Below are positions 7,150 to 33,936 of a stretch of DNA of 33,936 nt, in pieces (the stretch's first letter is position 1; the number at the start of each line of letters is the position of its first letter). Made by a program: the position numbers and the translations under genes. The stretch lies in IMG/VR virus record IMGVR_UViG_3300014885_000008, positions 1 to 33,936 of that record; one strand, given 5' to 3'. The notes beneath the pieces were generated by a model. It did not search any database. It had not been told where the DNA came from and was given only the letters and a program-made list of their open reading frames with translations. Source of the stretch: a virus. Taxonomy: Duplodnaviria; Caudoviricetes.

Positions 7150-7219
7150 GGCAGGAAGAGGGATTCGAACCCTCATCTACCCGATGGGCGGGCGTTCTAC
7201 CAATTTGAATTATTCCCGC
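7150..7219 (-). tRNA. tRNA-like gene with truncated anticodon arm (isotype not assignable)
   Basis: Acceptor GCGGGAA/TTCCTGC, T8A9, D arm ATTC-AAATTGGTA-GAAC, T arm GAGGG-TTCGAAT-CCCTC; anticodon arm only CCCG-CCCAT-CGGG; no encoded CCA. Confidence 0.8.
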
Positions 7220-17117: not shown

Positions 17118-17525
17118 ATGAATCGAAAACAAAGCTTTGTACCTTGGAACGTTTTAATCTTATCAACGGGCGAAACGATAGAAAAGGAAACCACCATGCA
17201 CAAGCTTGAATTAGCAGACCTACACAACAGACGGGGGAATATTACCACCGTGTCGAATAGGGCGAAAGCCAATAACTACCCCTTGCTAACATGGCCAGAA
17301 GATAAAGAGCTTTTACGGGTTTCCGATCTTCCAACAATCAATGGAAACCCTAACGTTCCCCCGGCATGGGAGAGCTTTCGCTCAGAGTCTAGTTTTTTTG
17401 TTTCGAATGATTGTGATCTTCGAAACAAGATCCGAGTAGGTCGCGCCTACTATCGAAATACTTCAATACAGCATTTAGTAGGCTATTTGATCGTTGAAGG
17501 GCTTTTCACTCGGGGGGATAAGTAA
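17118..17525 (+). CDS. Hypothetical early protein
   Basis: ORF in early operon; alternative start at 17196 (AAGGA RBS). Confidence 0.55.
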   Translation: MNRKQSFVPWNVLILSTGETIEKETTMHKLELADLHNRRGNITTVSNRAKANNYPLLTWPEDKELLRVSDLPTINGNPNVPPAWESFRSESSFFVSNDCDLRNKIRVGRAYYRNTSIQHLVGYLIVEGLFTRGDK

Positions 17526-17526
17526 C

Positions 17527-17832
17527 ATGACAATGGAAGAACGTTTGAATGATGCAAGGGCAAAGCTTGCGCGTGCGGATGCACCTCGCATAGAAGCAAG
17601 CCGGCGCCTATCCCTAGTTGACCTAGACACTGGCGAAATTCACGCTATTGACTATCTGCAAACGATCGAAGCTTTGTTAATTGACGAACGATGCCGGGTT
17701 TTAATGGGGATTAAACCCGATAGCAAAGCACGATCGACTTGGAATAGGTCAATCCAAGCCATTGCCGATAGCTTTCCCGAGTACCAAGACAAAGCCCGTA
17801 TTTTGCAATTCTTACTTGAGGTAACAATATGA
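17527..17832 (+). CDS. Hypothetical early protein
   Basis: Start reassigned to ATG 17527; ATGA overlap with next gene. Confidence 0.6.
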   Translation: MTMEERLNDARAKLARADAPRIEASRRLSLVDLDTGEIHAIDYLQTIEALLIDERCRVLMGIKPDSKARSTWNRSIQAIADSFPEYQDKARILQFLLEVTI

Positions 17833-19208: not shown

Positions 19209-19424
19209 ATGCGACATAGCAACGCACGGCGCCGGCATAGGCGCTTGGGTCAATCTGATTTTAACATTGCGCGCAGGGCTTGCTTGAACGATATTAGAGA
19301 GCAAGGCGCAAAGCTCTCACATATTGCGCATGCATCGCGGTTTCCGCCTCCTAGGCCATGCACGGCAAACGATCTTACCTTTGAATCACGTTGCTTGAAT
19401 TGCGGATGGTGCGGCAGCGCTTGA
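19209..19424 (+). CDS. Hypothetical basic protein with C-terminal Cys cluster
   Basis: GGGGGA RBS; C...CLNCGWC. Confidence 0.5.
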   Translation: MRHSNARRRHRRLGQSDFNIARRACLNDIREQGAKLSHIAHASRFPPPRPCTANDLTFESRCLNCGWCGSA

Positions 19425-22960: not shown

Positions 22961-23121
22961 ACAACGATCTTGAAAATCAGAAAGCCACGGCAATTCAACT
23001 TCTGTTGTCTTTCACGGTGATGGTTGATAATAAGGCGGACGTGATAAACAGAGTTCGCGAGATCACGAACGCGCGCAGCACCGTAGATATTGAAGAGATT
23101 ACAGGGAGGCCATTTAAATGA
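22957..23121 (+). CDS. Hypothetical protein
   Basis: ATGA overlaps at both ends; GGAG RBS. Confidence 0.55.
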   Translation: MNNDLENQKATAIQLLLSFTVMVDNKADVINRVREITNARSTVDIEEITGRPFK

Positions 23122-23894
23122 AAATTGCTGTAGCGTACGTACGACGAAGCAAAAAATCCGAGGCCGGCGTGGTGTCCCTGGACGCGCAGTGCGACGCGAT
23201 CTATGCCTACATAATGCGGAATGGCTGGAAGGTGGGCGGGATCATTCGCCACGATGGTATCAGCGGCACCAAGAGAGGAAGGTTTGATGAGATCCGAAAA
23301 ATGGTTGAAGATACTGGTGCAAGTGTTCTTGTGGTTTATAATCTTGATCGTCTTGCTCGGGACAGTGCGGGCCTTGTCGATTACCTTAGAGATTGCGCGA
23401 GAGGGGGAATCGAAGTCCATGAGTCCACCTCGGGACGACTCGATTTTAAACGATCACTTGGAAAACTTGTTGTGTCGGTGCGCGGTGCAATGGATCAATT
23501 TTACGCCGAGGTCATCGGAGAGAAAACCACTGATGCTTTGAAATTCCTGAAGGACGCAGGGCAGCAATACACGGGGATTCCACCACTCGGGTATCAATAC
23601 GTGGATGGAAAGATGGTGGCAGAACCCGAGGAGCAGCGAGCGTTGCAATTGATCGTTCACGCGAAGTCTCACGGGTTTGGCCGGCACCGGACCTTACGCC
23701 TGCTTCGAACCCACGGGTACACGGGCCGCGGAGGGCTATCCACGATCGACCGACTCTTGAGGCTTCCCACGGAGGCCCTAAAACAGGTCACGGACCCCGA
23801 AAATGCCCCCCAAAAAGATGAGGAAAATCAAGGGGTTTCGGAGGGCCAAAATGGCCGGATGGGCCAAGGGCCTCAACCAGGGGCCGCGCGTTGA
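23118..23894 (+). CDS. Serine recombinase (resolvase catalytic domain with short C-terminal domain)
   Basis: AYVRRS (catalytic Ser), SLDAQ, DGISG..R, VVYNLDRLARD, G..PLGY. Confidence 0.9.
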   Translation: MKIAVAYVRRSKKSEAGVVSLDAQCDAIYAYIMRNGWKVGGIIRHDGISGTKRGRFDEIRKMVEDTGASVLVVYNLDRLARDSAGLVDYLRDCARGGIEVHESTSGRLDFKRSLGKLVVSVRGAMDQFYAEVIGEKTTDALKFLKDAGQQYTGIPPLGYQYVDGKMVAEPEEQRALQLIVHAKSHGFGRHRTLRLLRTHGYTGRGGLSTIDRLLRLPTEALKQVTDPENAPQKDEENQGVSEGQNGRMGQGPQPGAAR

Positions 23895-30589: not shown

Positions 30590-30802
30590 GTGAACAAGGA
30601 ACTTGAAAACCGTTTCTCCTATCATGCTCCGACGCCGGAACAGCCGGCCAAGTATGAAGCCGTTAGGAGCATGGCGAAGCAGTTTGCATATTTCCTTCTC
30701 GAAGTGACGCCGTCGTCCCGAGAGCAGAGCACGGCCCTCACTAAGCTGGATGAGGTTGTGTTCTTTGCGAACGCCGCCATAGCGAGACGCAGTGAGAGCT
30801 AA
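30590..30802 (+). CDS. Acb2/Tad1-like helical-hairpin protein (candidate immune-signal sponge)
   Basis: F.YHAP...Q...Y..VR..AK..A......P.SREQSTALTKLDE..F.ANAAIAR. Confidence 0.7.
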   Translation: MNKELENRFSYHAPTPEQPAKYEAVRSMAKQFAYFLLEVTPSSREQSTALTKLDEVVFFANAAIARRSES

Positions 30803-30873
30803 GAAGTGGGCGCGGAGCAAGCGGCCCCGGTGTAAGCGCCGGGCCGCTATCCGCAAGCAGAAGAAAGGAATCA

Positions 30874-31596
30874 ATGAAAATCGAGCGGGACAAGAAGGGT
30901 GAAGTTGACGCCTTCAAGAAAATAAAGGCGTGGCTGCAAAAACGCCCCCGGTCGGATAAGGGGTGGCACGTTAGCGACCTGCTCTACATGCGCAAGACTT
31001 TCTGGCGCAAGGTAAAGCCCCTCCCCATGACCGATAAGGAAGCTTTGTTTTTTGTAGCCGGCCATGGACACCATCATATCATCGAAGCCCTGCTCGGCCC
31101 CAAGAAAACAGACGGCCGCACGGACGCAGGCGAATTTCAGAAACACGGCATCTTGTTTTCTCCCGACCTACGTTTCACTGACGGCCCCCTGGAAATAAAA
31201 ACCTCGCGGTCGAAATATATTAAGGCTGACCGTGAGAATCCAGCCGAAGTGTATGAAGGCTATCTGAAACAGCTAGGCAGTTACAATGCCTTGATGAATG
31301 CAAAGCATGGGAAGCTGTTGGTGCTGTTTCTGAATGCCATTATGGACGGGGAGAAGTGGAAAACAACGCCGCAACTCCGCCTATACAAGGTGGTGTTCGA
31401 GGCCGACGAGCGGAAGAAAATCGTCAAGTGGCTGCTCAAGAGGGCCAAGGACCTCGGGGCCGCTATCAAGAAAAAGAAGTGTGACGATCTTCCACTATGC
31501 CCCGAGTGGCTTTGCCGAGACTGCGCTTGGTTCAAGGGCTGCAAGCCGTGGCTCGTTGAGCCTAGGCGGAAAGGGTTGCAGGATGGCAAAAAGTAA
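30874..31596 (+). CDS. Cas4-like PD-(D/E)XK exonuclease
   Basis: HVSDL, G..HH, SPD, EIKT, QL..Y, C-terminal Cys cluster. Confidence 0.85.
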   Translation: MKIERDKKGEVDAFKKIKAWLQKRPRSDKGWHVSDLLYMRKTFWRKVKPLPMTDKEALFFVAGHGHHHIIEALLGPKKTDGRTDAGEFQKHGILFSPDLRFTDGPLEIKTSRSKYIKADRENPAEVYEGYLKQLGSYNALMNAKHGKLLVLFLNAIMDGEKWKTTPQLRLYKVVFEADERKKIVKWLLKRAKDLGAAIKKKKCDDLPLCPEWLCRDCAWFKGCKPWLVEPRRKGLQDGKK

Positions 31597-31768
31597 TTTC
31601 CCGAGCACCCTGTATGCTGTGCAGGACCGCGACGGGGACGCCACTTTCGAAGTTGCCTATCGAACGCTGGATGACATACCGGACGACGAACAGGGTAACA
31701 GAGTGGCTATCTATGAGCTTAAACGGGTTGGCACTTACTCTGTGACCAAAGTAATCGAAGACAAATAA
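31583..31768 (+). CDS. Hypothetical protein
   Basis: ATG 31583; FP.TLY...VAIYEL pattern. Confidence 0.6.
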   Translation: MAKSNFPSTLYAVQDRDGDATFEVAYRTLDDIPDDEQGNRVAIYELKRVGTYSVTKVIEDK

Positions 31769-31780
31769 CCGAAAGGGAAA

Positions 31781-31915
31781 ATGAAGATGCTAGGCCGCCC
31801 CGATGATATCTGGTTTCTGGTGGTGATTGTTTGGTTAGTCGGGGTTGGAAGCACGTTTGCTTTCTGCCTAGCTGCTTGGTTTTTAGTGCAGATAATTCGG
31901 CAGCTATTTCGGTAA
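31781..31915 (+). CDS. Small membrane protein (44 aa, not in ORF track)
   Basis: AAGGGA RBS; MKMLGRPDDIWFLVVIVWLVGVGSTFAFCLAAWFLVQIIRQLFR. Confidence 0.55.
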   Translation: MKMLGRPDDIWFLVVIVWLVGVGSTFAFCLAAWFLVQIIRQLFR

Positions 31916-31920
31916 ACCCC

Positions 31921-32204
31921 ATTCCGTGCTCCCCTGTGCGGGGAAGACAACTCATCGGGCCGTGCCTTGAGAAACGGCGCACAACGGTAGCCGGCCCGAC
32001 TTAACTCCCTTGCTGCTACGTTTTGTGAGTAACTGAGCCACAATAAGTAGCGTTGCCGTATGGCGGCGCGAAATTGGTTGGTGCGTGGAGCGGCTTCCAT
32101 TCATAGCGATGCGGGTGTTGACGGTCTTGAATAAAGACCCATGGAGCATCTTCGCTTGGGCACCCTAGTGGGTGTTAGGCCGCGGAAAGCAGCGGGCACG
32201 GAAT
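31921..32204 (+). ncRNA. Candidate large structured non-coding RNA (~285 nt), family not recognised
   Basis: Terminal stem ATTCCGTGCTC/GGGCACGGAAT closes the whole intergenic gap; at least six internal helices with plus-strand G-U pairs. Confidence 0.7.
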
Positions 32205-32224
32205 TTCTAACAGGAGGAACGTAA

Positions 32225-32470
32225 GTGGGAAAAGAATTTGTGAACATCAGGTCCGAGGCCCTCATCGAGCTTGAGCAAGATTATCGTGCTGAGCGAGTTC
32301 GGGAAGCCAAGATATTGATACACGAGAAAAGAAAACACCAAGCCGAAATTGAAAAGATCAACGCGCGGTTGTTGGAATTAGAAGAGGGAGCTATGCCGGC
32401 AGACCTGTCGCACAAAACGGAGGGTGATGCAATCCACATAACCCTAGGCCGGCAGTTTTTGAAAAAATGA
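32225..32470 (+). CDS. Hypothetical coiled-coil protein
   Basis: AGGAGG RBS + GTG; ATGA overlap with helicase. Confidence 0.65.
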   Translation: MGKEFVNIRSEALIELEQDYRAERVREAKILIHEKRKHQAEIEKINARLLELEEGAMPADLSHKTEGDAIHITLGRQFLKK

Positions 32471-33642
32471 AAATCACACTGGCCCCCGACTTAGAGCGGG
32501 CGCTGTTGCGGTCGATTGCCGAGGGCGTGCAGCCTCCATCCATCGTCCAACCGGACGAACTCAGCAAAAAGGCAAAAGCAATCCACGGCGCCCTAGTTTA
32601 TTTAATCAAGCGCGGGGCAAAACCCCCGCTGAAGCCGGCTTCAATAATGCTCGCGGCCAACAGCTTGTACGGCTTCCCCAAGTCTTCGGCCGAAGCATTC
32701 TTGCGGTCGTTTAAGGAGTTTCAAACAGGTGAAGAAATTGCTACGATCGTTCAAGCGGCACGGGAAAAATCTGCTCTGGCGAGTCTTATCAACGCGGCAG
32801 GAGAGCAACTCTCAACCGGAGTTCTTGATACCGGAGTTCTTGCGCGTGCCTTGGCAGAATCTTCCCCCAAGCACAACCGAGACGTTGTTAGTTTGGCAGA
32901 GCGGGTGGGGGACAAATTCACTTCGCCGCCGCATGGACTTGATCTCCTATCACTTCCTGAAATCACCAATGCTACAAATGGCCTGTCTGGAATATGGGTT
33001 ATCGGCGGCGAGCCTGGACTCGGAAAGTCTACGCTTGCTATGCAGATTGCTATCGACGCCGCGGCTCGCACCGCCGTTGACTATTACGATATCGACGGGA
33101 CAGGGGAAGCATATTTCATTGATCGCCTTAGACAAATCTTTGGTGGAAATATTAGTAAATTCCGAAAAGCGACGACCTCTTTTCGCTACCATGAAACCAT
33201 CGAAGACATTGACGCCCACACTCAGGTAAAGAAAAACCCCGGACTCCTCGTGATAGATAGCATTCAAACACTGCCCGTGTTGACGAAGTGGTCGAAGGAG
33301 TCCATGGACGATTGGCTGCGCCGATTCAAGGGGCTGATTCAGATCGGCTACACGCTGCTGCTAGTGTCGGAGAAAGCACGGTCCCAGTACGGCCAAGCGG
33401 AGCTAGGCGGCTACAAGGGGACAGGCGATATTGAATACTCTGGCACCCTTTGTGCTCACGTCCTCGCGGATGAGGACGATGACAGCGTGATTCGATTCAT
33501 CATCGTCAAGAACCGCCACGGCCCCATGAAGGGCCACGTGGTAAACCTGCTGCGTGACGATGAGAAAGTTTTCTGGTTCAAAGAGGAGAAGATCAAAACT
33601 TATGTTGACCGTAAGCAGAAACGAAAATCAAGTAGAGGTTAA
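32467..33642 (+). CDS. DnaB/RecA-superfamily replicative helicase
   Basis: Walker A GEPGLGKS, Walker B LLVIDSIQ, GTGDIEY, KNRHG. Confidence 0.88.
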   Translation: MKITLAPDLERALLRSIAEGVQPPSIVQPDELSKKAKAIHGALVYLIKRGAKPPLKPASIMLAANSLYGFPKSSAEAFLRSFKEFQTGEEIATIVQAAREKSALASLINAAGEQLSTGVLDTGVLARALAESSPKHNRDVVSLAERVGDKFTSPPHGLDLLSLPEITNATNGLSGIWVIGGEPGLGKSTLAMQIAIDAAARTAVDYYDIDGTGEAYFIDRLRQIFGGNISKFRKATTSFRYHETIEDIDAHTQVKKNPGLLVIDSIQTLPVLTKWSKESMDDWLRRFKGLIQIGYTLLLVSEKARSQYGQAELGGYKGTGDIEYSGTLCAHVLADEDDDSVIRFIIVKNRHGPMKGHVVNLLRDDEKVFWFKEEKIKTYVDRKQKRKSSRG

Positions 33643-33871
33643 AATATCCATACCCGTGCCTCTTACTAACGGTTACACGTACACCCTTAAATGGGCGGCC
33701 GTTGGCGGCGATGACCATGCCGGGTTTGTCGCGGGCAAGATGCAGGAGGCGATAGGCGACCACCTCATGAAGCAGCGGGAGATTTGGTATCTGAAGGGGT
33801 GGCACGATGCAAAATCCAAGAAGGTGCCTAAGCGCACTTGGTTTCCGAAGGTGTGGGAGTGGCTAAATTAG
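33602..33871 (+). CDS. Hypothetical protein
   Basis: ATG 33602; Y.KGWHDAK.K motif. Confidence 0.55.
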   Translation: MLTVSRNENQVEVKISIPVPLTNGYTYTLKWAAVGGDDHAGFVAGKMQEAIGDHLMKQREIWYLKGWHDAKSKKVPKRTWFPKVWEWLN

Positions 33872-33936
33872 TTCACGGTAAGAAGAAGGCCACGTCCCTC
33901 AAGGAATGGCTCATCTGGCAAATCCGACGACTGAGC
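33859..33936 (+). CDS. Partial CDS (5' end)
   Basis: GTG start, MAKLVHGKKKATSLKEWLIWQIRRLS, open to the window edge. Confidence 0.45.
   Translation, partial: MAKLVHGKKKATSLKEWLIWQIRRLS

Follow-up and report, generated by a model that had tools for sequence, protein, structure and literature searches.

The stretch of DNA described here (the window) is a contig of 33,936 nucleotides (33.9 kb) from an uncultured phage, with a completeness estimated at 71%, and the DNA runs richest in this phage come from freshwater sediment. Its right arm carries genes for a primase, PolA, an Acb2/Tad1 protein, a Cas4-like nuclease and a DnaB-like helicase. The nuclease gene (30874–31596, + strand; phrog_1706, E 6e-14) and the helicase gene (32467–33642, + strand; phrog_243, E 7e-7, with Pfam DnaB_C under the cut-off) are the left and right landmarks of a variable slot, which in the window holds a 61-aa ORF, a 44-aa hydrophobic ORF (31781–31915, + strand), a 284-nt structured RNA element (31921–32204, + strand) and an 81-aa ORF (32225–32470, + strand, or 32212–32470 with its RBS). 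An earlier sequence-only reading had placed the element between the nuclease and helicase genes, which is right for the interval, but its direct neighbours are the small ORFs at 31781–31915 and 32225–32470. The ends were accurately set: the element starts 5 nt past a stop codon ending at 31915, and it finishes just before an RBS, 7 nt from the AGGAGG at 32212.

The 81-aa ORF belongs to no family in Pfam or PHROG and matched itself only among 5.8 billion proteins, all Atlas leads being below 0.9; it does have a homologue in a related locus, L016, which is without the RNA (36% by tblastn; phmmer E 9e-11). A search of GTDB with the helicase returned cellular matches of 24–31% only, pinpointing no host, and tblastn of the same protein against phage records gave no match. 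The Acb2/Tad1 hairpin-domain gene of the operon (30590–30802, + strand; PF24729, E 1e-18) likely encodes a cyclic-nucleotide sponge; homologues occur in the loci L008/L025 and L032, and the gene is missing in most relatives.

A rare element in a variable slot

Relatives of the helicase were taken from IMG/VR and from JGI metagenomes, 80 of the 186 metagenome helicase loci being kept. Among 33 relative loci that span the nuclease–helicase interval, some of them redundant, the element is found in one, L031, and a profile search of 40 relative loci likewise matched there only. The element is absent from all five relatives compared as whole records (three of these records are complete), which hold a single chance 12-mer with one mismatch. 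Nothing was matched by blastn in 50,697 phage and 72,556 plasmid records, nor by the strict core pattern in GTDB genomes (0 matches), and six pattern scans of IMG/VR yielded 3, 1, 6, at least 119 (in 28 of 64 parts), 118 and 14 loci, none with the other core blocks. In many relatives the nuclease and helicase genes simply abut. L016 and L022 share the neighbours of the L031 copy (the upstream lipoprotein-like gene and the 81-aa ORF) without the RNA, and the upstream genes of the window are different; the RNA therefore assorts as a cassette. It is optional and rare, and is best read as accessory cargo in a slot of interchangeable accessory genes.

The same slot holds other structures. At the junction of the lipoprotein-like gene and the 81-aa ORF homologue, L016:2105–2170 and L022:4700–4765 form a GC-rich stem of about 62 nt with an inner hairpin (z -2.7), for which the L016 copy has no Rfam match. 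A different element of about 95 nt, also unmatched in Rfam, lies directly before the helicase RBS in L037 (730–830; z -2.8), with a 10-bp closing stem and a nested ACUCA/UGAGU; its 5′ part is faintly like the first conserved block described below, yet the profile does not score it. In L031, a 13-bp hairpin absent from the window (L031:1090–1121) fills the gap between RNA and RBS, and its 3′ arm repeats a 7-mer of the central conserved block (983–989), so that in principle the L031 core could invade this hairpin as an antiterminator.

Conserved blocks and pairing of the RNA

L031 is a related phage whose helicase is 64% identical to that of the window, and its homologue of the element is 197 nt long (L031:892–1088), in the same slot. 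The two copies share three collinear and near-invariant blocks, with identities of 19/20, 15/15 and 15/17, for which the chance expectations within the L031 interval are about 1e-7, 2e-6 and 1e-4. The DNA flanking the element is unrelated, and the upstream gene differs, a lipoprotein-like ORF standing there in place of the 44-aa ORF. The near-invariant core amounts to about 60 bases, around which peripheral stems have been exchanged or lost. No shared reading frame is open across both copies on the + strand.

The two ends of the element are joined by P1, an 11-bp helix between 31921–31931 and 32194–32204 (both + strand). Its sequence is almost fully re-written in L031, with both-side changes in 7 of the 8 compared pairs and all 8 still paired, and runs of 11 and 9 pairs starting from arbitrary anchors have chances of 1.5e-5 and 1.5e-4. 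These both-side changes support the end-to-end closing helix drawn in the sequence-only reading. A helix so re-written and yet paired is the strongest evidence for what appears to be selection on the RNA fold.

Inside P1 lies conserved block 1 (31931–31950, + strand; 19/20 identical), which includes UGUGY (31935–39) and GGGGA (31940–44). GGGGA probably pairs with UCCC(Y) at 32006–10 to form P2, a helix that is plausible only (shuffle p 0.14), and UGUGY may pair with GCACA at 31979–83; the alternative for this block is a local CCCC/GGGG hairpin. A second pseudoknot, resting on one wobble change, is plausible only. The first pseudoknot, previously proposed as possible, joins ACUCA (31950–31954, + strand) to UGAGU (32026–32030, + strand). 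It is kept in L031 as CCCC/GGGG, with two both-side changes, at the price of one broken pair out of five.

Between these strands are found variable domain A (31955–31999, + strand), an 8-bp stem with an inner hairpin that is replaced in L031 by a different two-hairpin domain, and the conserved central block (32004–32025, + strand; 15/15 and 6/7 identical). The latter provides the 5′ strand of P4, a long-range helix missed by the earlier reading, in which 32010–17 would pair with 32188–95, abutting or invading P1. In each copy P4 can reach 8 bp, of which one pair is changed on both sides and another on one side (a wobble), and it exceeds column shuffles (p 0.012; shorter form p 0.045); a 5-bp extension past an ACG bulge and an alternative 3-bp register are indistinguishable. 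Further downstream come the variable hairpin P5 (32037–32082, + strand), of which the GCCA/UGGU base is kept, and three predicted accessory stem-loops (32083–32177, + strand), which are missing from L031. The last conserved segment, the 3′ block (32178–32194, + strand; 15/17 identical), is made of the 3′ strand of a possible helix P6, a GRAA linker and the 3′ strand of P4. P6 can form 7 bp in both copies (32090–96 with 32177–83 in the window, 1022–28 with 1064–70 in L031), taking the first half of the block.

Over 42 modelled pairs in 8 helices, compared by coordinates since the MAFFT alignment is wrong at the 3′ ends, only 1 is broken and the other 41 are canonical in the window and L031 alike; 10 pairs differ on both sides and 4 on one side. 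Because the helices were chosen by eye, this tally makes the support look stronger than it is, and two distinct members plus one allele are too few for a statistical covariation test. The pairing of the core is ambiguous with two sequences, and it is best called probable, not settled, because ViennaRNA gives P2 and P4 pair probabilities of at most 0.06, because the constrained model costs 4 kcal/mol (window) or 11 kcal/mol (L031) before pseudoknots, because the L031 copy folds barely better than its shuffles (see below), and because L031 can form a perfect 10-bp helix that sequesters the 3′ block in competition with P4 (p 0.0013), with no window counterpart. Given this helix, the core may switch between pairings, or may be drawn wrongly. 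Three other pairings were rejected: AAGAC with GUUUU, whose strands are invariant and show no covariation (joint duplex p 0.74); block 1 with the 3′ block (p 0.69); and the central block with the RBS (p 0.28 and 0.40, no better than shuffles).

A strain allele brings a third sequence. One contig of run X4 covers the element and departs from the window by 15 substitutions and 7 indels. These 22 differences are confined to 31956–32076, and none of them touches P1, block 1, the invariant 15-mer, either pseudoknot strand or the 3′ block. At 31956 and 31960, C-G pairs of the 31955–99 stem have become U-G, and these two wobble-preserving changes support the stem as first drawn; one insertion extends a C run that would pair in P2. 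The single-base changes of this allele rest on one contig, at a depth of 2.9. In addition, 12 substitutions and 6 indels in 32035–76 make up 18 events that exchange the tip of P5 (32041–76). The swapped tip is real, since it is also present as loose contig ends in X3 and in the RNA run X11. Read by hand, the new tip re-forms a stem on the same GCCA/UGGU base. In a comparison covering 8 of the 12 runs (X1, X2, X6 and X7 aside), the two versions of 32035–76 co-circulate in sediment runs with near-identical flanks, which suggests recombination of a small RNA module.

The fold drawn in the sequence-only reading can now be set against these comparisons. All of its helices are formable, eight of them exactly where it had put them, and the GGTCTT/AAGACC helix folds at 32123–32139. 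P1, the 31955–99 stem and the pseudoknot carry over to the conserved fold. The rest does not: the GCTAC/GTAGC (32047–51) and TTGTG/CACAA helices are broken in the X4 allele, the GTTGCC hairpin is replaced there, and none of the three has a counterpart in L031. Neither the T-loop-like hairpin nor the three 3′ domains can be considered conserved features; they are peripheral, because L031 lacks them. With other pairings making up the conserved core, about half of that fold differs from the conserved one as modelled here.

Folding energy is weak to modest evidence for the element. The 284 nt give a z of -2.6 on the + strand (0 of 200 shuffles as low) and -2.5 on the - strand (2 of 200), falling to -2.0 and -1.1 once flanks are added; 2 of 59 ordinary right-arm tiles reach -2.5, and the L031 homologue has a z of only -0.3 (73 of 200 shuffles). 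It is the homologue and the strain allele that make the element more than chance. Elsewhere in the window, tiles 17285–17568 and 18989–19272 fold like the element (z -2.5 and -2.9, 25 shuffles), the second of them preceding a strong sigma-70-like site at 19421.

The similar z values on the two strands, the position among replication genes and the absence from most relatives could also be explained by a signal acting at the DNA level (an origin, or a hairpin in single-stranded DNA at which primase or helicase is loaded) or by a functionless mobile remnant. This is improbable in our view. The earlier argument that G-U pairs favour a plus-strand RNA holds: the 4 one-sided changes against L031 and the 2 in the allele are all compatible with G-U pairing on the + strand, and these 6 would be A-C on the - strand. 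Moreover, the long-range pairs covary, no iteron-like repeats are found, and the terminal repeats, in contrast to transposon ends, have not kept their sequence.

Comparison with known RNA families

Within the element, nothing in Rfam reaches the gathering score, and a search of 4227 families at E up to 10 produced one irrelevant match outside it; the L031 copy has three chance matches only at the same threshold. Together with the syntenic homologue and its compensatory changes, this bears out the description of an unrecognised structured RNA.

The first group of comparisons concerns the housekeeping RNAs. In bacterial RNase P RNA, P1 joins the ends, the 3′ strand of a long-range helix directly precedes the 3′ strand of P1, and the periphery is variable. 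The element shares the joined ends and the variable periphery, and a possible 8-bp P4 would abut the 3′ strand of P1 in both copies (p 0.012), with a low predicted probability. Its size, its paired ends, the RNase P-like position of P4, and a 3′ block superficially like helix 8 of SRP RNA would suit a strongly diverged housekeeping RNA (RNase P, SRP, tmRNA, 6S or raiA) acquired from a host. Such an origin is nevertheless very unlikely. Searches at E up to 10 with RF00010, RF00028, RF01854 and RF03072 give no candidates, the controls being positive (for RF00010 in 11 of 14 genomes), and the strict pattern, as noted, is absent from GTDB. Signature motifs are also absent: unlike RNase P RNA, the element has no CR-I (in both copies, neither strand has one even when 1 mismatch is allowed) and no CR-V on the + strand (two 1-mismatch matches only, on the window minus strand). 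For SRP, the helix 8 motif, which has an apical stem and a GNRA loop, is absent at up to 1 mismatch, and for tmRNA, which has a tRNA-like domain with a T-arm and a tag frame, ARAGORN finds 0 genes and there is no T-arm motif.

The second group is that of the ribozymes. Known ribozymes combine a small invariant core held by pseudoknots with large tolerated insertions, and the element shows this pattern. The order of its strands (pseudoknot 5′, domain, P4 5′, pseudoknot 3′, hairpin, P4 3′) loosely recalls P3/P7 of the group I core, and P4 would lie directly against P1, a further likeness to RNase P. A ribozyme belonging to a class not yet described, self-excising or processing the operon transcript, is conceivable, though we hold it to be quite unlikely. 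No Rfam ribozyme model scores, RF00028 included, and unlike a group I intron the element is intergenic and without exons, sitting in both copies between a stop codon and an RBS. Block 1 does contain a pentamer like the 5′ part of P7, with no exact 3′ partner motif, so that the motif pair of the guanosine site is absent. The RNA contigs run joint-free across 31967–32117 and 32035–32197, although contigs drop rare forms. Signatures of hammerhead, twister and D5 give nothing usable in either copy, and a loose descriptor of the HDV-like or theta nested double pseudoknot, P1-P2-P3-P1.1-P4 with a catalytic C in J4/2 (run without a positive control), has 0 matches in 4 of 4 strands, with no Rfam match either. 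Theta ribozymes are the subject of PMC10879173, as far as its available text shows.

The closest architectural likeness is to raiA motif RNA. According to the available text of PMC12968392, this RNA (RF03072) is 113–253 nt long, with ends paired by P1, a compact core of two pseudoknots and optional stems; it is chromosomal, occurs in more than 2,700 species, forms RNPs, is of unknown function, and has a conserved inner P1 sequence. The architecture of the element resembles this one: P1, one pseudoknot and the variable periphery are supported, the core is probably compact, and the second pseudoknot comes down to one wobble change. Unlike raiA, its P1 is re-written, and its known members belong to one narrow phage lineage. 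RF03072 gives it no score, with 0 candidates where the controls were seen in 7 of 14 genomes, none above the cut-off. It also differs from the ROOL and GOLLD RNAs, which form cages of 659 nt to more than 800 nt, often near tRNA islands: the element matches neither model, measures 197–284 nt against roughly 600 nt or more, and belongs to a replication operon. In build it recalls raiA and in way of life ROOL and GOLLD, the latter two as portrayed in the parts available of the source (10.1101/2024.12.08.627333), yet it belongs to none of these families.

The DNAVirus_X candidates, intergenic phage motifs defined by covariation (PMC10690425, in its accessible part), are comparable in setting. The core motifs do not occur in 3 of the 6 text supplements of that paper, and the element may be identical with one of the candidates. 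A literature search on titles and abstract openings brought up no description of the element, and the words “helicase” and “Cas4” are absent from the portion available of the Minerva preprint (10.64898/2026.09.22.753630). On the best reading, this would be an RNA of a family absent from Rfam, apparently undescribed and lineage-restricted, a new raiA-like orphan.

Transcription and proposed role

Three metatranscriptome runs contain contigs within the element, at 32035–32197, 31967–32117 and 32077–32195. Counted over the 2 kb by which the runs were found, all 3 RNA contigs fall within the element, compared with 2 of 18 DNA contigs (Fisher p 0.0075), with the provisos that the RNA contigs are read-length, strandless and of depth 2–4, that the runs were picked with this same stretch and that the libraries may contain DNA. 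Two of the RNA contigs stop near the predicted 3′ end (32195 and 32197), and the gap in RNA coverage at the first 46 bases carries no evidential weight. Run X10 has further contigs in the operon, at 30660–30810 and 33845–33936. These data are a weak hint of a stable transcript of the element. Because no sigma-70-type promoter or terminator was found in 31400–32500, excision from the operon transcript is plausible.

The reading we lean towards, with confidence somewhat short of even, is that of a stand-alone RNA trimmed from the replication-operon transcript and predicted to act in trans on a host protein. The RNA would be co-transcribed with the replication operon and then trimmed to P1, which would protect its ends from exonucleases. 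A compact core would be built from P4, P2 and one or two pseudoknots, its conserved surface would be seen by the partner, and the variable arms would be tolerated insertions. In the last and weakest step, the folded RNA might serve in trans as a decoy or scaffold, the partner being perhaps a host RNA-binding or anti-phage factor. The stable-RNA reading is drawn from the freely re-written end helix, the invariant core and the exchangeable arms, which fit raiA as far as PMC12968392 describes it in its available text. The counter-defence flavour comes from context only, that is, from the variable accessory slot and the Acb2/Tad1 gene in the operon. Several facts speak against a stand-alone RNA: both members lie directly upstream of the same ORF, the search described above found no promoter or terminator belonging to the element in the window, and nothing indicates a specific partner.

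The first of these facts leads to a serious rival, which we nonetheless consider rather unlikely: a cis-acting leader or processing signal, in which a two-state switch or RNase III-type cutting would control how strongly the 81-aa ORF and the helicase are expressed. In both members (2/2) the RBS of the 81-aa ORF follows 7–40 nt further on, other long stems occupy this spot in close relatives that lack the element (L016/L022 and L037), L031 adds its 13-bp hairpin, and mutually exclusive helices can form in both copies. In addition, RNase III processes the polycistronic transcripts of T7 (PMC6938266, available part). The competing helices, however, are not the same in the two copies, and pairing between the central block and the RBS region stays at shuffle level (p 0.28 and 0.40). 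Many relatives do without any element between abutting nuclease and helicase genes, and some 60 near-invariant bases would exceed what a cleavage stem needs.

If the stand-alone RNA is taken one step further, the element could be the first member of a new compact class of phage RNA, in which two pseudoknots would hold some 60 invariant bases together, working either as a self-releasing ribozyme or as a host-RNA mimic that neutralises an anti-phage protein alongside Acb2/Tad1. Such a bold version is speculative, and its chances are on the low side. We know of few phage RNAs of such size with a known job. If true, either outcome, a ribozyme of a new kind or a counter-defence decoy made of RNA only, would count as a real discovery, tempered by the rarity of the element (two members). 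The 284-nt form, the 197-nt form and the swapped-arm allele constitute a natural deletion series, pointing to a core of less than 100 nt, amenable to synthesis and direct testing.

Some minor features of the phage and its relatives may be mentioned. A serine recombinase gene (23118–23894, + strand), with a Resolvase N-terminal domain and a PHROG integrase assignment, lies in the middle of the early/replication arm. In L006 (166–857) and L009 (727–1454), the PolA match is broken by about 700 bases, possibly an intron, an intein or an endonuclease insertion. Finally, a tRNA-like gene at 7150–7219 (- strand) scores 42.5 bits with the Rfam tRNA model, yet ARAGORN makes no call. Its anticodon arm is odd, since it has either a 5-bp stem closed by a loop of only 5 nt or a 7-nt loop with CCA, the latter version having neither U33 nor purine 37, and the gene may be a pseudo-tRNA or a decoy.
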